A DNA stretch of 32,000 nt from Parvibaculaceae bacterium. Lineage in GTDB: Bacteria > Pseudomonadota > Alphaproteobacteria > RS24. The stretch is from the NCBI GenBank assembly GCA_965199285.1, contig OZ240687.1, forward strand, positions 127,065 to 159,064, written 5' to 3'. Each line of letters opens with the position of its first letter. Position 1 is the stretch's first letter. Position numbers and translations under genes: made by a program. Shown here one piece after another: positions 1,427 to 26,825 of the stretch. The notes beneath the pieces are model-generated. The model saw nothing but the letters and a program-made list of their open reading frames with translations, was not told the origin of the DNA and made no database searches.

Positions 1427-1846
1427 ATGCCAGCCGATAAAGCGCGCATGTTTTTATATGATTTCTCGCCGGACGTGCTGCTCACCGCCAGTGTGAGGGA
1501 TGTTTACGCATGTGCAATGATAAAATTGGTTGCAAATCATACGGCTTTATCATCTCACACTAGTGAAGCCTATCTGATGGGGCCAAGCCGCGGGCGAAAA
1601 ATCCTCGCGCGGGCGCGGCAAAAAAGCCAATATTTAATGAATATTGTTTTTGCCATGGACTATACGCAGATCGGTAAATATACCAAACGTGACCGTACGA
1701 GTGTTGCTCATGCTTGTGGGGTGATAGAAGAAAGTCGTGATAATCTTGTCGTAGATAAGTCTTTATTTTTTACCGAAATGGCATTGCAAGCGATGGCGCA
1801 GGTGAGTTGGGGGGAAGATTATCTGGCGGCAGGGGAACAAAAATGA
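1427..1846 (+). CDS. DnaA domain-IV-like helix-turn-helix protein (candidate GafY-like N-terminal half of a GTA activator)
   Basis: 139-aa ORF with a strong RBS (AGGAGG at 1415-1420, 6 nt before the ATG). The C-terminal half reads GRKILARARQKSQYLMNIVFAMDYTQIGKYTKRDRTSVAHACGVIEESRD, which follows the DnaA C-terminal DNA-binding pattern (R..ARQ...YL....IG....RDHTTV.HA...IE). The functional call as a GTA activator is inference. Confidence 0.7.
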   Translation: MPADKARMFLYDFSPDVLLTASVRDVYACAMIKLVANHTALSSHTSEAYLMGPSRGRKILARARQKSQYLMNIVFAMDYTQIGKYTKRDRTSVAHACGVIEESRDNLVVDKSLFFTEMALQAMAQVSWGEDYLAAGEQK

Positions 1847-2610
1847 CTCCCGCTTTGCTTCAAGAGTTTCGCCGTATTGCACCGCGTTTGGTGCGCGCTG
1901 GTTCATTTCTTGCGGTACAGGATAAAACCCAGTTTGGATTATTTATTGCTCGCAATAAAGCCCGCCGTCCGGTTGTGAAAATAGATACACAAATTGTGAT
2001 GGCTTGGCAAAAACATGACTTGCTTGATGGCGATCAGCATAAATTTGTTCTAAGTAAGGCAGGTCATGCACTCTGGCGTCGCTTAAATGCAAATGGCGAT
2101 AAATTTCGGGCGCAGCATCAAATTATTCAGAATGTCAAAATTGATGATGATCATCGTAACGTCAAAAAAAATATGTCTGAAACGCCTTTGGCGTGGCTAA
2201 GGGCACGCAATCATCAGTCTGGCGTTTCGATAACCGATATCGAGTTTGATGCTGGTGAAAGATTGCGAGAAGATTTTGATGCTGCCCAACTAAACGCCCG
2301 GCTTACTGTTGATCTCACACAGGCGGTTAGTAGTAAAGGGCGACGGATCACGAATCGGGAAATTGTGCCGCTTAATGCTCTGGATGCACGCAAGCGTTTG
2401 CAACAGGCTTTGCAATATGCAGGGCCGGGATTGGCGGATATGTTGCTGATGACGTGTTGTGAATTATGTGGGATAGAAGAAAGCGAAAAGCGGTTTGGCT
2501 GGCCGCGTCGATCCGGCAAGCTGATGCTCAAAATGGGACTCGCGCGATTGGCGGTATTTTATGGGTTGCAAACCGATGAGGCGGCTTCGGAATCTTTGCG
2601 AATGCGTTGA
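1843..2610 (+). CDS. DUF6456-like protein (candidate GafZ-like C-terminal half of a GTA activator)
   Basis: The track ORF is 1807..2610. I prefer the ATG at 1843, which forms an ATGA overlap with the upstream stop and has GGGGAA just before it, giving 255 aa. The motifs SETPLAWLRAR and AGERLREDFDAAQL match my memory of DUF6456-family proteins. The C-terminus (KRFGWPRRSGKLMLKMGLARLAVFYGL) looks like an HTH. Confidence 0.65.
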   Translation: MTPALLQEFRRIAPRLVRAGSFLAVQDKTQFGLFIARNKARRPVVKIDTQIVMAWQKHDLLDGDQHKFVLSKAGHALWRRLNANGDKFRAQHQIIQNVKIDDDHRNVKKNMSETPLAWLRARNHQSGVSITDIEFDAGERLREDFDAAQLNARLTVDLTQAVSSKGRRITNREIVPLNALDARKRLQQALQYAGPGLADMLLMTCCELCGIEESEKRFGWPRRSGKLMLKMGLARLAVFYGLQTDEAASESLRMR

Positions 2611-8594: not shown

Positions 8595-9534
8595 TTATAA
8601 AATCCAAAGTGAAGGCATCTTGCCAAACTAGAGACGTATCATAGATGCCATTTTTTTGCATTAGCGTATAAAAATCACGCCATCGGTTTGCGTCCATATA
8701 ACCGATTTTCTCACCCAGCATATTGCGGTCGCGAATTTGTTTGCGTGCATAAGCAAGTAAAGCCGGCGACATATCAGGATTATTGGCAAGAATTAATGTA
8801 TCACCCGCACTGGGGTTTCCATAAATATATTCTTGCCAGCCTTGTTGGCTGGCACGCACAAAGGCATGAACAATATCAGGGTGCACGGTAATCAGCTGGT
8901 TTTGCGCCATCACCATGGCGGCGTAACCCGGATAGCCATAATCTGAAAGCAGAAAAACCTGCGGGGTGATGCCGCCTTCTATTTCGATTGTATAAGGCTC
9001 GCTGGTGACATAGCCTTGCTGAATGGCTTTGTCATTCACCAAGAAAGGGGCAAGATTAAACGTGTATTTTCTAATTTGCCTATCTTCAAATTGAAACGTT
9101 GATTTCAACCAAATCCAAAAACTGCCAATGGTTGCATCGGCAATCATAATCGGATGCCCGCGCATATCTGCTAATGTACGAATATCTGTGCGCGGATGGG
9201 TGATGAGGACTTGCGGGTCTTTTTGAAATGCGGCCATCACAACTTTCGCATCTATGCCGACTTTTACCATATTGAGCGGAATAAACGCATTTGATCCCAT
9301 TCCAAACTCAATCGCGCCAGCACCCAATAATTGTGGAATATTGATCCCAGGACCACCAGAGATGATGCGAACATCTAGCCCCGCTTTCTCATACAAACCC
9401 ATTGCCTTTGCCTGATAGAAGCCGCCTTGTTCGGCTTGCGCCTTCCAATCGGTCGCAAAGCGAATAATGGGAAGCTCTTGTGCATAAGCAGAGCTTACAA
9501 AAAACGAGAGAAATAATATGGAAAAAAATTTCAT
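8584..9534 (-). CDS. ABC transporter periplasmic substrate-binding protein (NMT1/THI5-like, sulfonate/nitrate/pyrimidine type)
   Basis: The track ORF is 8584..9603. The Met at 9534 begins a signal peptide (MKFFSILFLSFFVSSAYAQ). The gene overlaps the ATPase start by 11 nt. The substrate cannot be deduced from sequence alone. Confidence 0.75.
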   Translation of the reverse strand: MKFFSILFLSFFVSSAYAQELPIIRFATDWKAQAEQGGFYQAKAMGLYEKAGLDVRIISGGPGINIPQLLGAGAIEFGMGSNAFIPLNMVKVGIDAKVVMAAFQKDPQVLITHPRTDIRTLADMRGHPIMIADATIGSFWIWLKSTFQFEDRQIRKYTFNLAPFLVNDKAIQQGYVTSEPYTIEIEGGITPQVFLLSDYGYPGYAAMVMAQNQLITVHPDIVHAFVRASQQGWQEYIYGNPSAGDTLILANNPDMSPALLAYARKQIRDRNMLGEKIGYMDANRWRDFYTLMQKNGIYDTSLVWQDAFTLDFINEN

Positions 9535-9573
9535 AATCGCTATGGTGGCAGAGGAGCGCAGCAAGGTCAAGTA

Positions 9574-10011
9574 ATGAGCTTTTGGAAAAATAAGAAACTG
9601 CAAGATATGACAAAGGCCGAATGGGAGAGCCTGTGTGATGGCTGTGGGAAATGCTGCCTTGTTAAATTGGAAGATGAAGCAACCGGCGCACTTGCCTATA
9701 CAGATATTGCCTGTGATCTTTTGGATTGCCAGAGTTGTCAGTGCAGCGATTATGAAAACCGCATCATGCGGGTGGAAGATTGTGTTTCCCTAACGCCTGA
9801 AACTGTAGCGACGATAGGCTGGTTGCCATCAACATGCGCTTATCGGTTGATTGAGGAAGGAAAGGATTTACCCGATTGGCATCACCTCATTTGCGGTGAT
9901 AAAAATGCTGTTCATGCGCAGGCCATGTCGGTGCGCGGTAGGGTTCACGCGCAAAAAACGATAAAAAATAATTGGGGAAATCATATTATTGATTGGGTCA
10001 TAACCCCATGA
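9574..10011 (+). CDS. ycgN: YcgN-like UPF0260 Cys-rich protein (YkgJ zinc/iron-chelating fold)
   Basis: 145 aa. WESLCDGCGKCCLVKLEDE...YTDIACDLLDCQSCQCSDYENR is the UPF0260/YcgN Cys pattern. Confidence 0.75.
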   Translation: MSFWKNKKLQDMTKAEWESLCDGCGKCCLVKLEDEATGALAYTDIACDLLDCQSCQCSDYENRIMRVEDCVSLTPETVATIGWLPSTCAYRLIEEGKDLPDWHHLICGDKNAVHAQAMSVRGRVHAQKTIKNNWGNHIIDWVITP

Positions 10012-10091
10012 AGAGTTTGTGGATTTTTAATTTAATCCTCTCTAAAAACATTATAAGCATATGAAAAATATAATTTTATTTGATTTTTCGG

Positions 10092-10121
10092 TTGACATAG
10101 CCGCACGCTCAATGCTATAAG
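10092..10121 (+). promoter_or_regulatory. Sigma70-like promoter candidate upstream of the GTA cluster
   Basis: TTGACA (10092-10097), then 16 nt, then GCTATAAG (10114-10121). This resembles the alphaproteobacterial housekeeping consensus (TTGAC.. / GCTANAWC). It rests on sequence resemblance only. Confidence 0.4.
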
Positions 10122-10135
10122 TTATGGCATGATGC

Positions 10136-10175
10136 AAAAAAGTCGGTAAGGAGATGTCTCCCACCTGCTTTTTTT
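10136..10175 (+). terminator. Intrinsic-terminator-like hairpin with flanking A6 and T7 tracts
   Basis: A6 (10136-10141) comes first. The stem pairs G45-C65, G46-C64, T47-A63, G50-C61, G51-C60, A52-T59 and G53-C58, with loop ATGT (10154-10157). Outer pairs G42-C68 and T43.G67 extend it, and T7 (10169-10175) follows. It lies after the promoter candidate and 55 nt before the g1 ATG. Confidence 0.5.
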
Positions 10176-10201
10176 ATGCATTAACTTTTTTATGCATTTA
10201 A
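10168..10201 (+). repeat. Tandem direct repeat C-T(6-7)-ATGCATT-(T)AA, two copies
   Basis: CTTTTTTTATGCATTAA (10168-10184) and CTTTTTTATGCATTTAA (10185-10201). The palindromic ATGCAT cores sit at 10176-10181 and 10192-10197, 16 bp apart, immediately upstream of g1. Confidence 0.7.
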
Positions 10202-10229
10202 TGAATTGAAGTTATCGCGACATTCGAAA

Positions 10230-10535
10230 ATGAATAAGGATAATAAACGCCCTGCCGACATTCTTGATGATGTGCAGGAAAAATTATTACATGCGTTTGA
10301 AGATTTACAACGCAGCCTTCCCCTTCCGGGTGATGAGGTGCCGCAAGATTATGAACGTCTCGCACGGATTATTGAACATATGGTGAAAACGCTCGATACG
10401 CTCAGGCGTTTCGCGCGTGAATATGACAAACAAGAAGAAGAGCAAAACAGCACCAGCCAGTCCACGCTTCTCGCCGAAATTGAACATCGGTTGGGTCGCC
10501 TCTCTGCCACCACAGAAGAGACAGACATTTCTTAA
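10230..10535 (+). CDS. GTA g1-position small protein (small-terminase-like by position)
   Basis: The track ORF starts at TTG 10206. The first ATG is 10230 (MNKDNKRPADILDDVQEKLL...), giving 101 aa. It is predicted helical with an acidic C-terminus. The call rests on its position before TerL only, and no clear RBS precedes either start. Confidence 0.5.
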   Translation: MNKDNKRPADILDDVQEKLLHAFEDLQRSLPLPGDEVPQDYERLARIIEHMVKTLDTLRRFAREYDKQEEEQNSTSQSTLLAEIEHRLGRLSATTEETDIS

Positions 10536-11781
10536 CGGCTTATCAAAGCAAGAAGTTAAAGCGCTGTATTGGTATTGGCCGTTCTGGGCACGAGACGATC
10601 AGTTACCGCCGGACGGGGATTGGACGAGCTGGCTTTTATTAGGTGGACGTGGGGCTGGCAAAACGCGCTCTGGCGCGGAATGGGTGCGGGCGCTGGTGGA
10701 AGCAGATGATAAGGATTCGGGCTGCCGCAATATTGCTCTCATTGGTGAAACACTGGCGGCGGCGCGGCAAGTTATGGTTGAAGGCCCTTCGGGTCTGTTG
10801 AGCGTGTCGCCCCCTTATTTTAAGCCGCGCTTTTATGCCAGCCGCAATATGCTGATCTGGCCAAATGGCGCACGCGCTTATTTATTTTCGGCAATGCGGC
10901 CAGAAAATTTGCGCGGGCCACAATTTGATGCCGCTTGGTGCGATGAATTGGCAAAATGGCGATATGATGAAATGACATGGGATATGCTGCAATTTGGTTT
11001 GCGGTTGGGAGATAATCCGCGTCAGGTTGTCACCACAACGCCAAAACCAACGGCGCTCATTAAACGCCTCTTGGCGGACCCCAAATGCGTTGTGACGCGG
11101 GCCGGAACAAAAGCGAATATCGCCAATCTGGCGCCGTCTTTTATGAAGGATATTGTTGGGCGCTATGAAGGAACCCGGCTTGGTAGGCAAGAATTGGATG
11201 CGGAATTGCTGGAAGATACGCAAGGTGCATTGTGGAATTATGACCTTTTGACGCGTCAGCGTTGCAGTGAGGTTCCGGAATTTGTCCGGATTATTGTTGC
11301 GGTTGATCCGCCGGTTGGTAGTGGTCCGAAAGCAGATGCCTGCGGCATTATTGCCTTAGGGCTAAGCGCGCAAGGGTATGTTTATGTGCTAGATGATTGT
11401 TCGGTGCAAGGCTTAAGCCCCGCCAAATGGGCGCGCCGCGTCATAGATGCGTATCATGATTATGAGGCAAGTGCGCTGGTTGCTGAAATTAATCAGGGCG
11501 GTGAGCTTATTCGCGAATTAATCATCCGCGAGCAGCCGGATGTAAATTATCAAGCGGTACGCGCAACCCGCGGCAAACTTATTCGGGCGGAACCGGTTGC
11601 GGCGCTTTATGAACGTGGAAAAGTGTTTCATATCGGGCGGTTTGACGCGCTTGAAAAAGAAATGTGCCAATATGATGGGCATGGTGCTAGCCCCGACCGC
11701 TTAGATGCGTTGGTGTGGGGTGTCACAGAATTATTGCTGCGCCGCAAGCGCGCCATACGCCCAACCATGCGGCGCTTATAG
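10417..11781 (+). CDS. GTA terminase large subunit (g2 equivalent)
   Basis: 454 aa. The N-terminal GTA TerL pattern is WVASLPPQKRQTFLNGLSKQEVKALYWYWPFWARDDQLPP, and Walker A is LLLGGRGAGKTRSGAEW. The start is uncertain (GTG 10417, ATG 10423 or TTG 10480), and every option overlaps g1. Confidence 0.9.
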   Translation: MNMTNKKKSKTAPASPRFSPKLNIGWVASLPPQKRQTFLNGLSKQEVKALYWYWPFWARDDQLPPDGDWTSWLLLGGRGAGKTRSGAEWVRALVEADDKDSGCRNIALIGETLAAARQVMVEGPSGLLSVSPPYFKPRFYASRNMLIWPNGARAYLFSAMRPENLRGPQFDAAWCDELAKWRYDEMTWDMLQFGLRLGDNPRQVVTTTPKPTALIKRLLADPKCVVTRAGTKANIANLAPSFMKDIVGRYEGTRLGRQELDAELLEDTQGALWNYDLLTRQRCSEVPEFVRIIVAVDPPVGSGPKADACGIIALGLSAQGYVYVLDDCSVQGLSPAKWARRVIDAYHDYEASALVAEINQGGELIRELIIREQPDVNYQAVRATRGKLIRAEPVAALYERGKVFHIGRFDALEKEMCQYDGHGASPDRLDALVWGVTELLLRRKRAIRPTMRRL

Positions 11782-22300: not shown

Positions 22301-23024
22301 TATGAAAGCCGCCCCGATAGGACGATTTCTCAAAACAATGACGATTGATATTGAAATCTCTGATGGTGAATTGGAAAGCCGCTCTGCTTTACAAGTCTTA
22401 AATGGTTTGAACGCATTTGCGGTGCGAACCGAAAAAGGGTGGGAAATTATCCAATTTGGTGAAGCCCAGCTTATCGGCGAACGGCGCTATCGTTTATCAC
22501 ATATTTTGCGCGGCGCGATGGGTAGCGATGATATGATGGTTGAACTTTTACCCGCAGGCGCGGATTGTGTGTTCCTAAGCACCGCTTTGCGCCCACTTAA
22601 CTTTGCGCGTGAGCGGCTGGTATCAGAGGTTGAATTTGATTATGGCCCCGCCCAGCTTCAACAAGGCACATATGCGTGGCGTAAAACCAGCTATCAGCTC
22701 ACCAATATTGCGTATCGGCCTCTATCACCGGTGCATCTAAAAGCTAAATCACAAGCAAATGGTAACCTTGCCATTAGCTGGATTCGGCGCGGGCGGATTG
22801 ATGCCGATAATTTTGAGACGGAAGAGATTCCGCTCGGCGAAGAACGCGAGCAATATCGGATACGGCTTTATGCAGATGGCGCGATTGTGAAAGACGATAT
22901 TGTCGATGCACCAGACTGGCAATTCACCAGCGCGATGCGCGATAATAGCAAAACATATAAACTCCATGTCGCACAAATCAGTGCCACTTATGGGGCTGGC
23001 GCAGAGGCAGTGTTAAATTTATAA
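19305..23024 (+). CDS. GTA baseplate megatron / host-specificity protein with a central TIM-barrel-like glycoside-hydrolase-like domain (g15 equivalent)
   Basis: 1239 aa. The N-terminal pattern IPIIFGRIRLGGQLIW ... YRSLAYVVFQDFDLSSFGNRIPQLSFEV is present. The central region AFLIGSEFAALS ... WLTEIGCPAVDKGSNEPNQFPD resembles the GTA TIM-barrel-like domain. It is the last and largest gene of the cluster. Confidence 0.88.
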   Translation: MSELNLVSSPSTTTGNPLLQIALTAAQWQQSQKTPTREFGRLEQLQILGVGEGHSIPIIFGRIRLGGQLIWQGGLKEHVHESGGGKSSSVPQQRHYSYSTHFAVGLCAGEISHIGRVWADGRLLDLSKYIMRVNNGTADQSPDPLIQSVEGENTPAYRSLAYVVFQDFDLSSFGNRIPQLSFEVFRRNEEAANLIRGVNIIPGATEFAYAPDIHVRAHRWDIIGENVNASPSLSDWHVSIDALQDACPACKQANLVVAWYGTDLRAGECVIEPRVLDGQRRNLPRDWFVAGRGRGQVNVVSQVRGRPAFGGTPNDQSIIDAIKDLKTRGIAVTFYPFLMMDIPAGNNLPNFEGGRGQPAYPWRGQISVYPQNVNGTKEAYNQLHRFVYGADGKSGLNGMMVHYANLCAQAGGVEAFLIGSEFAALSRVSQARGDYVFAKLLKEVAANVRKILPNTKISYASNWDEYGHYVEHEYGDVNFPLDEFWADENCDFIAIDAYFPLSDWRDGMTHLDAKNGARSISDIDYLKSNIEGGEYYDWYYASQEDRDKQTRTPITEWVFRSKDIRNWWLNTHYTRRNWQQDASTPWQAQSKPIWLTEIGCPAVDKGSNEPNQFPDKNAAAAAAGLPHYSNGQRDDVIQRHYIRAISEYFEDPAHNPVSSVYHAPMLARDKISIWAWDARPFPVFPYNTGLWADGVNWFTGHWLNGRVSSAGLADMWRHIADDQLTINATHGSVAVEGYLIDGQHSAREAMEPLLQSFGLDAVADGQGIKISDRGQAVNITPLTEDDLLAGSGRAVLQRDDVSLLPNLLQLQYLRDDGAYETAIVTARVNEQSLPQLRLSVPLVMSRGRAETIAARLLHEVRTEYEHMRFILPPRFVFLEPADILSYQGKLWRIVSVTYQGALEIEAIHYEPALYSNAQQDQLYETLIESVAAVARPELHILELPIAAQLANAQNDWPEGAPLAAVSGRPWPSSVLIEDDTNIWSQELTRPSILGVTQSDMKAAPIGRFLKTMTIDIEISDGELESRSALQVLNGLNAFAVRTEKGWEIIQFGEAQLIGERRYRLSHILRGAMGSDDMMVELLPAGADCVFLSTALRPLNFARERLVSEVEFDYGPAQLQQGTYAWRKTSYQLTNIAYRPLSPVHLKAKSQANGNLAISWIRRGRIDADNFETEEIPLGEEREQYRIRLYADGAIVKDDIVDAPDWQFTSAMRDNSKTYKLHVAQISATYGAGAEAVLNL

Positions 23025-24898: not shown

Positions 24899-26825
24899 GC
24901 TTGGCCATTTCACTCTTATCTTGGCACTGCTTCTGGCATCAGGGCAAGTGTGGTTTGGGCTGCGCGCCGCCAAGCACGATCATCCGGGTTTACTTCAGCT
25001 GGCGCGGCGGGTTAGTCTTTTACAATTCCTGCTTTTGCTGATTGCCTTCGGGGTGCTTATGCAAGCCTATATTCGCTCAGATTTCTCGGTACTAAATGTG
25101 ACGATTAACAGTCATGTCGCAAAGCCTCTGCTCTATAAGATTTCGGGCGTTTGGGGCAATCATGAAGGCTCGATGTTGCTATGGGTGTTGATTTTAGCTC
25201 TGTTTGGCGCGGCGATCGCTTTTTCTCGACAAGCTATCGAACCGGTTTTTCGAGCGCGGGTGATTGCGGTGCAAGGGGCGGTAAGCTTTTTGTTTCTTGG
25301 CTTTTTGCTCTTTACATCAAATCCTTTTATCCGACTTTTTCCAGCCCCCTTTTCTGGGCAAGGGCTTAATCCGGTTCTACAAGATCCGGCTCTGGCGGCG
25401 CATCCGCCAATGTTATATGTGGGCTATGTCGGTTTTTCGCTTGTCTTTGCTTTTGCTGTCGCTGCCCTTATGGGGCGCGAATTACCACTTAATTGGGCGC
25501 GCCTACTGCGCCCTTGGATTTTGATTGCATGGATTTTTCTGACCATCGGCATCGCGCTTGGATCATATTGGGCGTATTATGAACTTGGCTGGGGCGGGTT
25601 TTGGTTTTGGGATCCGGTTGAAAACGCTTCCCTTATGCCATGGCTTTCGGGTACGGCACTTTTGCATTCAGCTTTGGTGACCCAACAGCGCGATCTTTTG
25701 AAAAGCTGGACAATATTATTAGCGATTTTAACCTTTGGTTTATCGCTGGTCGGGGCGTTTTTGGTGCGTTCCGGTATCCTGACCTCTGTCCATGCTTTTG
25801 CCAATGATCCGGCACGTGGGGTTTATATATTACTTATTCTGGTTTTAATTATGGCAACGGCTCTGTGGCTTTATGCCCGCGCCAGCCGATATTTTTCAGC
25901 ATCTGAAAAAATCATGCCCTTATCTCGTGAAACCGCCTTAGTGGTGAATAATGTATTTTTGGTAACGGCTGTCGCGACGGTGTTTATTGGCACACTTTAT
26001 CCGCTATTTCTTGATGCGCTTGGCGGCGCGAAAATCTCTGTCGGTGCGCCTTATTTCTCGGCTGTCTTTTTACCGCTTATGGTTCCTTTTGTCATTCTAT
26101 TGCCGTTTGGACCATTTTTGCGCTGGCGCAATGGGATGCTTGCTTTGCGTCACTTATCCTTACCGCTGCTGGCAGCGTTGCTTGTTGGGGGTGGAATTTT
26201 TCTCGGTCGGGGTGCTGATATGGCGGTGAGCTTTGCGGTTGCCGGTAGCATCTGGTTGATAATGGGCGGCGGTGCCGATATTGCCATGCGGCTGCGTCTA
26301 TATGAGGGGGATGTAATCCGAAAACTCATAAAAGCAAGGCTTATCCATTTTGCCTCTGGGCTTGCCCATGCCGGCATTGGGGTGATGCTGTTGGGCATTA
26401 TTGGTGCAACCGCTTGGAAAGAGGAAGTGGTGGTTGCCATCGCGCCGCAAGACATTATCGAAATTGGTCATTATAAAATTCGCTTTGCGGGGGTTAAAAA
26501 AACCGAGGGGAAAAATTATCAATCCAGTCAAGCCACTCTTACTTATGTAAGCGGGCCGCATAATTTTGGAACCCTAACGCCAGAGCGGCGCTTTTATCCG
26601 GTTGAACGAAATCAAACCACCGAGGCGGCTATTTATAAACGGCTCGATCAGCATCTTTATGCGGTGCTTGGGGAATCGGCGGATGGCAAATATATTATTC
26701 GGATCTGGCTGCATCCGCTTGTGATGCTGATTTGGATTGGCGCTGGTTTTATGGCGGTGGGGGGATTATGTCGATTGACAGAATTTATCCGCCCCCGAAA
26801 CGTGAAGAATAGGCAAGATATATGA
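24888..26825 (+). CDS. ccmF: Cytochrome c heme lyase subunit CcmF
   Basis: 645 aa and polytopic. The WWD motif is WGGFWFWDPVENASLMPW. It overlaps ccmE by 11 nt. Confidence 0.93.
   Translation: MIIELGHFTLILALLLASGQVWFGLRAAKHDHPGLLQLARRVSLLQFLLLLIAFGVLMQAYIRSDFSVLNVTINSHVAKPLLYKISGVWGNHEGSMLLWVLILALFGAAIAFSRQAIEPVFRARVIAVQGAVSFLFLGFLLFTSNPFIRLFPAPFSGQGLNPVLQDPALAAHPPMLYVGYVGFSLVFAFAVAALMGRELPLNWARLLRPWILIAWIFLTIGIALGSYWAYYELGWGGFWFWDPVENASLMPWLSGTALLHSALVTQQRDLLKSWTILLAILTFGLSLVGAFLVRSGILTSVHAFANDPARGVYILLILVLIMATALWLYARASRYFSASEKIMPLSRETALVVNNVFLVTAVATVFIGTLYPLFLDALGGAKISVGAPYFSAVFLPLMVPFVILLPFGPFLRWRNGMLALRHLSLPLLAALLVGGGIFLGRGADMAVSFAVAGSIWLIMGGGADIAMRLRLYEGDVIRKLIKARLIHFASGLAHAGIGVMLLGIIGATAWKEEVVVAIAPQDIIEIGHYKIRFAGVKKTEGKNYQSSQATLTYVSGPHNFGTLTPERRFYPVERNQTTEAAIYKRLDQHLYAVLGESADGKYIIRIWLHPLVMLIWIGAGFMAVGGLCRLTEFIRPRNVKNRQDI

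Follow-up and report, generated by a model that had tools for sequence, protein, structure and literature searches.

In Caulobacter, where the gene transfer agent (GTA) CcGTA is controlled by GafY, GafZ and integration host factor (IHF), GafZ loads at the promoter and acts as a processive anti-terminator; a consensus -35 hexamer frees this promoter from its need for GafYZ, and deletion of gafZ lowers a leader-only reporter four-fold (PMC11150451). Here we analysed the leader of an RcGTA-type cluster in a 32,000-nt stretch from a Parvibaculaceae bacterium (assembly GCA_965199285.1, contig OZ240687.1, positions 127,065 to 159,064 of the forward strand; hereafter the window, numbered from 1). The 218-bp gap between a ycgN-family gene and g1, the first gene of the cluster, holds a promoter followed by a terminator-like hairpin with a U-tract, which a preliminary description of the sequence had proposed as an anti-termination checkpoint. 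Comparison with other loci shows the promoter to be orthologous to a promoter and leader conserved across alphaproteobacterial GTA clusters, and the hairpin is one local case of a class of predicted promoter-proximal terminators that is widespread in GTA operon leaders. The genome contig that holds the window measures 2.1 Mb.

As in Caulobacter, gafY and gafZ are separate genes here, and the GTA promoter is of sigma-70 type and has a GC-rich element between its -35 and -10 hexamers, the site bound by GafZ in Caulobacter. Also shared are a non-coding leader, terminator(s) passed (as proposed here) only by GafZ-modified polymerase, and possibly an IHF-like upstream site. The -35 hexamer is degenerate in Caulobacter (AATCAT) and needs GafY and IHF, whereas it is the consensus TTGACA here, and the leader of about 250 nt compares with one of ~100 nt here, with a single small hairpin and U7. 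The cluster type and promoter further appear orthologous to those of Rhodobacter capsulatus RcGTA (Fogg 2019, PMC6363796; PMC9638019), and the start site of transcription (TSS) lies about 100 nt upstream of g1 in both, as a prediction here. In R. capsulatus, the C-terminal domain of GafA, the equivalent of GafZ, binds a fragment with -35, -10 and TSS (PMC6363796; PMC9638019); unlike the split genes of the window, GafA is a fusion, acting through the omega subunit of RNA polymerase. The word 'terminator' occurs in neither R. capsulatus paper (PMC6363796, PMC9638019).

A similar layout is found in the PR'-Q-binding element-pause-tR' regions of lambdoid phages under Q (lambda, 21, 82): a strong promoter, a factor site between -35 and -10 (a candidate here), a conserved early transcribed region with an A/T-anchored, -10-like hexamer (CATGAT), and a nearby downstream terminator giving a short default RNA (predicted here), with a long operon beyond, which in the lambdoid phages comprises structural and lysis genes. 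The lambda 6S RNA is about 194 nt long, and the terminator of the window lies much closer to its promoter than does lambda tR'. GafZ has no detectable sequence or Foldseek similarity to Q, and the pause element and loading mechanism through which it would act are putative.

In Bartonella, the BaGTA promoter P_bgtA-K is a constitutive minimal promoter, the leader terminator (T_bgtA-K) causes default-off, heterogeneous expression, and the regulator BrrG is processive and Q-like (bioRxiv 10.1101/2024.11.20.624540). A predicted leader terminator and a putative anti-terminator encoded elsewhere recur in our locus; BaGTA, however, arose independently in evolution, its regulator BrrG is a different one, and its leader measures 864 bp. 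Its authors speculate that RcGTA is regulated in the same mode, without identifying a terminator in RcGTA-type clusters (bioRxiv 10.1101/2024.11.20.624540). GafZ anti-termination has been shown in Caulobacter only and is a proposal for the RcGTA family (PMC11150451; bioRxiv 10.1101/2024.11.20.624540), and searches of the open-access literature yielded no account of a terminator in the leader of RcGTA-type clusters.

Promoter and start of the leader

The promoter had been read as TTGACA (10092-10097), 16 nt and GCTATAAG (10114-10121), and direct reading confirmed these coordinates; related promoters favour the extended -10 element TGcTATAAG with a spacer of 18 nt over the plain GCTATAAG reading. 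A simple consensus scanner does not flag the promoter, the last -10 base of which is G. In the contigs with the closest terminases, at identities of only about 65-70%, an intergenic block of the form TTGACA-(N)-GC-rich-CGCT-(N6-7)-TA...T-(N5-7)-CATG.T is kept, and a profile of this block, iterated once, matched 66 of 97 loci, all on the sense strand and 400-1000 nt upstream of the terminase match. The matched loci come from Hyphomicrobiales (promoter consensus GGAAAATAnnCnTTGACAGCGTGACGCTGnnnnGGTAGGTTnnnnnCATGCTCCACAAnTGCG), Rhodobacterales and Parvibaculales-like genomes, among them Methylopila, Ancylobacter, Xanthobacter, Maritalea, Ruegeria and Roseicyclus. What the preliminary description called a strong-looking promoter is thus no chance match, but the local copy of a conserved GTA promoter. 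When the profile was built from 31 distant genomes only, leaving out the window and its clade, its best match in the window was 10091-10139 (E = 0.016; next match E = 1.4), and close relatives scored E = 1e-4 to 1e-3.

Near-invariant columns among 60 non-redundant leaders comprise TTGAC, C-G-n-T within the spacer, the T that ends the -10 element and CA-n-G-n-T at the start site, and the window carries all of them, including C10106, G10107 and T10109 of the spacer element. This element, AGCCGCACGCT, is identical at 8 of 11 positions to the family palindrome AGCGTGACGCT, which is conserved in Hyphomicrobiales, and its position is that of the GafZ-binding element of Caulobacter (GCGCCCG-CTGGCGC, between -35 and -10; Tran & Le 2024, PMC11150451). 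In L090-L092 the spacer reads CCGCCCCGCTGG, close to the Caulobacter sequence. We therefore regard AGCCGCACGCT as a candidate GafZ-binding element.

Promoter conservation and the R. capsulatus geometry, with -10 and TSS 76-125 bp upstream of g1 (PMC6363796), would place the start of transcription near A10129; in the Rhodobacter-like locus L044, the predicted TSS lies ~100 nt upstream of the likely g1 start. C10128, A10129, G10131 and T10133 all fall in conserved columns, and the first ~20 transcribed bases are orthologous to the family leader, GGCATGATGCAAAAAAGTCGGTAAG aligning with the Rhodobacterales consensus GGCAAGCTGGAAGAAGTGGGCAAG in the covariance model match described below. CATGAT (10128-10133) has 4 of its 6 bases in common with TATAAT, its A and final T being conserved across the 60 leaders, and this early transcribed sequence may be a pause or loading signal.

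Upstream of the -35 hexamer, the motif TAAG(C/T)CA(T/C)TGAAA(A) is present in L008 (3546-3560), L090 (about 2417-2431), L092 and L093/94. Its reverse strand (TTTCAATGACTTA) agrees with WATCAANNNNTTR, the IHF consensus of E. coli, in 12 of 13 positions for L008 and L090 and in 11 of 13 for the window, where the motif reads TAAGCATATGAAAAA and is a candidate site for an architectural protein or activator, possibly, to judge from this resemblance, IHF. In the L008 organism, TAAGTCATT is found upstream of gafY as well (L097, about 1908). No CtrA box (TTAA-N7-TTAA) was found in the window.

Hairpins with U-tracts in GTA leaders

The A6 (10136-10141) and T7 (10169-10175) runs stand where the preliminary description had placed them, and the U7 tract directly follows the closing G-C pair. 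RNA folding, suggested there as a check, yielded a stable hairpin for 10136-10175 (-13.7 kcal/mol, z = -3.80, 1 of 200 shuffles as good) and for its 61-nt context (-20.3 kcal/mol, z = -3.75). The minus strand also reads as terminator-like, in keeping with the earlier description as an apparent bidirectional intrinsic terminator; in predicted strength, the window hairpin alone is moderate, not strong. A consensus terminator scanner does not flag it, the stem having two internal loops. Against Rfam 15, window positions 9500-10800 gave only a sub-threshold match to IS605-orfB-II (23 bits, gathering score 88 bits), and twelve related loci gave no matches. By itself, the window thus provides modest evidence beyond chance; the strong evidence is comparative.

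For this comparison, 62 non-redundant leaders were scanned from the predicted TSS to +140 with a terminator criterion of our own (ViennaRNA hairpin of -9 kcal/mol or below, loop of 3-10 nt, at least 5 T in the next 7 nt). Sense-strand terminators were found in 32 of the 62 leaders and antisense ones in 6. Within +100, a terminator-like hairpin with U-tract is present in 28 of 62. As controls, the antisense strand and the 100 nt ahead of the promoter give 3 of 62 each, random windows reach 46 of 1238 (3.7%), and dinucleotide shuffles average 3.8 of 62, with a maximum of 7. A U-tract nearly always follows the hairpins, which in most other lineages begin at +13 to +21 or beyond. From lineage to lineage they have unrelated sequences, with promoter, first ~20 nt and structure conserved; within the clade of the window (Table 1) they are likewise unlike in sequence and alike in placement. 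The orientation of the upstream open reading frame (ORF) relative to the presence of a terminator (14 of 33 co-directional, 14 of 28 divergent) was not relied on, as ORF calling was too crude.

In Rhodobacterales, including L044 from a metagenome-assembled genome (MAG) labelled Rhodobacter sp., a strong conserved hairpin keeps a fixed place at +20 to +50 (-14 to -26 kcal/mol; GNRA-type loops and a U5-7 tail), and almost all loci where this could be checked carry it; loci missed by the promoter profile have the same hairpin at the same distance from the terminase gene. Pairing holds in 94.9% of cells versus 88.3% in shuffles, and the covariation score is 0.32 versus 0.20 (0 of 500 shuffles reaching the observed value in either case); structures slid by 1-3 columns score far lower. 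A covariance model, R1, built from 18 Rhodobacterales leaders, recovers 13 untrained loci with E = 1e-20 to 9e-4, and a 14th, L050, with E = 9e-3. Its top match in the window is 10126-10182 (14.8 bits). The E-values from this model are rough and come to 0.048 when 34 sources are searched and to 0.0056 when the search, with filters off, is of the window only. A second match, 25228-25299, lies inside ccmF and was taken as chance.

Some leaders without a hairpin carry short tandem repeats: in L006, 3625-3700 contains TTGAACCTCAATGCC at least three times, and the leaders of L020 and L021 have arrays of GGCTTC or GGCTGGCTTC. The Caulobacter terminator is likewise made of direct repeats.

Regulator genes, cluster and neighbouring features

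The two ORFs at 1427-2610 that the preliminary description had singled out as regulators were identified by Pfam as GafY-like (Bac_DnaA_C) and GafZ-like (DUF6456), and both genes are intact. The gafY-like product has weak matches in the Protein Data Bank (PDB) to DnaA domain IV. The gafZ start overlaps the gafY stop via ATGA (1843-1846; 2501-2504 in L097), which suggests translational coupling. The pair lies ~8 kb upstream of the GTA cluster; the contig of L008 carries its own gafY-gafZ pair (L097) ~6 kb upstream of the cluster, separated from it by sufE, DUF1491, DUF934 and sulfite reductase genes, and a sulfite reductase gene also lies between pair and cluster in the window. Among 54 homologues of the GafZ-like protein are DUF6456 proteins of ~340-390 amino acids with an added helix-turn-helix Pfam domain, one of them named from Rhodobacteraceae; a BLASTp query with R. 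capsulatus GafA returns DUF6456-annotated proteins (Sherlock & Fogg 2022, PMC9638019). An AlphaFold model of GafZ reached a pLDDT of 87, and a run on the single sequence (pLDDT 35) was discarded. Foldseek searches with the model gave weak local matches to sigma-factor region 4, and a PDB sequence search with GafZ gave no match.

The RcGTA-type cluster is complete in the window, from g1 at 10230 to a GTA_TIM/Rcc01698-like g15 ending at 23024; terminase, portal, protease, capsid and GTA_TIM/Rcc01698 were assigned by Pfam. The ycgN stop is the TGA at 10009-10011, and the order NMT1/ABC - ycgN - g1 - terminase is conserved in L001, L004, L006 and L090-L094. Of the two g1 starts considered earlier (TTG 10206 or ATG 10230), an alignment of nine homologues favours ATG 10230, and the reported absence of a Shine-Dalgarno sequence upstream of it was borne out. 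Since the cluster is tightly packed, with g1 and the terminase gene overlapping and a terminase-portal gap of 14 nt, the leader is the sole non-coding stretch ahead of g15, and thus the only possible site for a non-coding checkpoint before it. Inside g1, on the minus strand, lies a sigma-70-like site (10310-10283, TTGTAA-16-AATAAT, with TG); an antisense transcript from there would meet the minus-strand face of the A6/hairpin/T7 structure.

Table 1. Features of the window and leader hairpins of its clade. Positions with a plus sign are relative to the predicted TSS.
Feature	Position	Strand	Evidence
gafY-like gene, DnaA domain-IV-type helix-turn-helix	1427..1846	+	Pfam Bac_DnaA_C, E = 1.3e-8
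gafZ-like gene, DUF6456	1843..2610	+	Pfam DUF6456, E = 1.1e-38, profile positions 2-135 of 136
ycgN-family gene, co-directional upstream neighbour	9574..10011	+	NCBIfam YcgN, E = 9e-64
Conserved upstream motif TAAGCATATGAAAAA	10054..10068		TAAG(C/T)CA(T/C)TGAAA recurs 13-26 nt upstream of -35
-35 hexamer TTGACA	10092..10097	+	TTGAC (near-)invariant in 60 non-redundant GTA leaders, 1.8-2.0 bits per column
GC-rich spacer element AGCCGCACGCT, candidate GafZ-binding element	10099..10109		aligns with palindrome AGCGTGACGCT
Extended -10 TGcTATAAG	10113..10121	+	aligns with G-TAGGTT / TGnTA.. block of related promoters
Predicted start (about A10129) and conserved initially transcribed region CATGATGCAAAAAAGTCGGT	10128..10147	+	conserved columns
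Terminator-like hairpin: A6, imperfect stem, AUGU loop (core 10142-10168), U7	10136..10175 (about +8 to +47)	+	-13.7 kcal/mol, z -3.8
Two exact 13-nt direct repeats TTTTTTATGCATT, 16 nt apart	10170..10198		copies 10170-10182, 10186-10198
g1, first gene of RcGTA-type cluster	10230..10535	+	g1 homologue alignment, Pfam for downstream genes
L008 hairpin	+16 to +60		-22.1 kcal/mol, z -4.3
L091 hairpin	+8 to +39		-12.9 kcal/mol, z -3.7
L092 first hairpin (second follows)	+15 to +40		-17.3 kcal/mol, z -4.7
L093/94 hairpin	+13 to +38		-14.2 kcal/mol, z -3.0

The nearest terminase relatives of the window are only 68-73% identical, so that no close relatives were available for comparison; lower-ranked matches (54-61% identity) include Parvibaculales and Parvibaculum MAGs. 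A scan of genome contigs with the terminase alone gave no confirmed relative, and in an alignment-based terminase scan of genome contigs identity was at most 59% among the matches listed. The search for g1 homologues returned the query only, and an exact look-up of the ycgN sequence gave no record. L003, L004/L005 and L090 retain promoter, g1 and terminase with most of the cluster gone: a truncated portal or DUF2793 gene directly abuts nitroreductase and ccm genes, which form the 3' flank of the intact cluster in the window. The leader hairpin of L090 has lost its U-tract as well. Across ccmF (window 25000-26500), which encodes a membrane protein rich in T-containing codons, the AT skew is -0.30 to -0.37.

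The two 17-nt units reported downstream of the hairpin are present as described (C-T7-ATGCATT-AA, 10168-10184; C-T6-ATGCATT-TAA, 10185-10201). Repeats of the TTTTTTATGCATT type are specific to the window and absent from its relatives; Tandem Repeats Finder does not report them, a 13-nt repeat being too short. ATGCAT is avoided in the window, with 4 copies (1345, 10176, 10192, 13432) against 29.7 expected under a dinucleotide model and 13.8 under an order-3 model, and 3 of the 4 lie in GTA regulatory DNA, two in the leader and one ~80 nt upstream of gafY (TTCTATATGCATTTTTAG). TATGCATTT occurs exactly twice in the window, at 1344 and 10191, and the ATGCAT copies may be a shared protein-binding site. 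Other six-base palindromes are avoided as well (TTTAAA, 0 versus 20 expected; GAATTC, 1 versus 13; CTGCAG, 0 versus 6.6; GGGCCC, 0 versus 8.5), and ACCGGT is in excess (12 versus 3.3); the avoidance may result from restriction-modification pressure.

A 15-codon ORF, MSPTCFFYALTFLCI (ATG 10154 to TAA 10201), shares sequence with the 3' arm of the hairpin and with both repeats. Its translation is improbable, because the spacing between AAGGAG and ATG is zero and both lie inside the stem-loop; attenuation via a leader peptide encoded by this ORF was rejected on these grounds and because the ORF overlaps the terminator, which it would have to precede. A 22-nt direct repeat (10119-10140 / 10209-10230, 73% identity) was dismissed as being at about chance level by estimate, and no long repeats were found near the leader.

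A proposed promoter-proximal checkpoint and its alternatives

We consider it reasonably probable that the leader is a promoter-proximal checkpoint in the style of lambda PR'-tR', passed by GafZ-modified polymerase. The strong GTA promoter would fire and transcription would start near A10129; unmodified polymerase, from this promoter or from ycgN read-through, would stop at about +45 to +48, and by default a transcript of about 47 nt would be released. Together with GafY, the GafZ-like protein would engage polymerase at the spacer element and the early transcribed region and render it termination-resistant, and the modified polymerase would transcribe g1-g15. Expression of these genes, presumably lethal, would occur only with GafZ-modified polymerase. 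The processive anti-termination by GafZ, the independence conferred by a consensus -35 hexamer and the drop of the leader-only reporter in Caulobacter, together with the leader hairpin, make such a checkpoint the most economical mechanism. The earlier proposal of this arrangement thus finds support in the conserved promoter, the regulator genes and the recurrence of leader hairpins.

Several observations weigh against the checkpoint. The G+C-containing core of the stem contributes only -7.6 kcal/mol, the stem has a C/U mismatch and a U-G pair beside the U-tract in addition to its two internal loops, and the hairpin is among the weakest of the leader set. The finder behind the counts is home-made, and its criterion matches about once per kb in the A+T-rich window; many of the 62 leaders are related, so that the counts overstate independent events, and the covariance-model E-values carry the roughness noted above. 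The close relatives L001/L004, L006, L009 and L003 and many Hyphomicrobiales have no leader terminator, which is therefore not obligatory in the family. In Caulobacter, the mapped terminator, terGTA, consists of three 150-bp GC-rich direct repeats after gene 1; of what the preliminary description said about that system, loading of GafZ at the promoter and anti-termination hold, whereas the terminator lies after the first gene and not in the leader. Repeats of the terGTA type are absent here, nor does the cluster leave space behind gene 1 for a terminator. Foldseek with the GafZ model returned no match to Q21 or another Q-like protein. TSS, termination and dependence on GafZ are themselves predictions.

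The hairpin could instead be an insulator only, a bidirectional terminator that ends transcripts of ycgN and antisense transcripts of g1 and leaves GTA transcripts untouched, or constitutively attenuated, without GafZ. Between its stop and the promoter, ycgN has no terminator of its own in the window, L092 and L093, so that the leader hairpin is the first terminator met by ycgN read-through; the A6/T7 symmetry with its minus-strand reading and the promoter-like site inside g1 (10310-10283) fit the same role. However, ycgN and the hairpin are separated by the conserved promoter, upstream of which an insulator would serve equally, and a terminator downstream of the TSS must act on promoter-initiated polymerase also. 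Why the hairpin should be locked to the downstream side of the conserved start site would be left unexplained: terminators lie downstream of the promoter at 28 of 62 loci and in the 100 nt upstream at 3, and the hairpin of Rhodobacterales, where the one upstream gene inspected (L044) is not ycgN, keeps a fixed +20 from the promoter. With the promoter in between, and the hairpin tracking the promoter elsewhere, the earlier alternative that the hairpin simply terminates ycgN is weakened. We regard pure insulation as unlikely; termination of ycgN or insulation is plausible as an additional function of the hairpin.

A 5' stem-loop with a role in stabilising the g1-g15 mRNA or in its translation, with an incidental U-run and no termination, would suit the minimum-free-energy fold of the whole leader, which sequesters the 5' end (+2 onward) in a long helix with UGAUGCA/UGCAUUA pairing, and 5'-terminal helices do protect bacterial mRNAs. 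In other lineages, though, the hairpins mostly begin at +13 to +21 or later and not at the 5' end, the U-tract that nearly always follows them would not be needed by a stabiliser, and GC-rich stems that are capped by a tetraloop and end in a U5-7 tail are the classic mark of intrinsic terminators, making this reading quite improbable. A near-consensus promoter and a terminator would also yield a free-standing, trans-acting small RNA (sRNA) of ~47 nt from a constitutive promoter, and R. capsulatus has many uncharacterised sRNAs (PMC5546546). Such a function appears very improbable given the lack of an Rfam family match, the lack of conservation of the hairpin sequence across lineages, and the absence of any other candidate promoter for the GTA cluster. 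The sRNA of about 50 nt suggested earlier is no true alternative: a short terminated RNA is the expected by-product of the checkpoint, as is the lambda 6S RNA. Finally, the A6/T7 palindrome and the ATGCAT/T-run repeats could act as DNA, binding a repressor or roadblock shared with the gafYZ promoter, as the concentration of an otherwise avoided hexamer in the leader and 80 nt upstream of gafY (3 of 4 copies) and the two exact copies of TATGCATTT would suggest. The repeats are, however, window-specific and situated downstream of the hairpin, for which they do not account, and no candidate binding protein was identified; we hold this to be scarcely probable.

A bolder version of the checkpoint seems possible, if on balance doubtful. 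The GTA promoter might be essentially constitutive, with on and off set wholly at the leader terminator, perhaps generally in RcGTA-type clusters including those of Rhodobacterales; an abortive RNA of ~47 nt would be made unless GafZ, or the C-terminal domain of GafA, were loaded at the spacer palindrome during a sigma-dependent pause set by CATGnT...GTGGG. The 'activation' by GafA would then be largely anti-termination, and the ATGCAT/T-run repeats would be a second, lineage-specific input.

How GafA or GafYZ activate the cluster is an active question, and the comparative result names a missing cis element: about half of the clusters surveyed have a conserved early transcribed sequence and, behind it, a predicted intrinsic terminator, no further than ~50 nt from the start. 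The general leader-terminator pattern seems to be undescribed, and the element of the window is one fairly weak example of it. As a sequence signature, the arrangement can be used to search for functional GTA promoters. The producing cell presumably lyses at the end of GTA production, so that the switch must be tight, and a checkpoint in the leader may help to explain why GTAs are expressed in only a subpopulation of cells.

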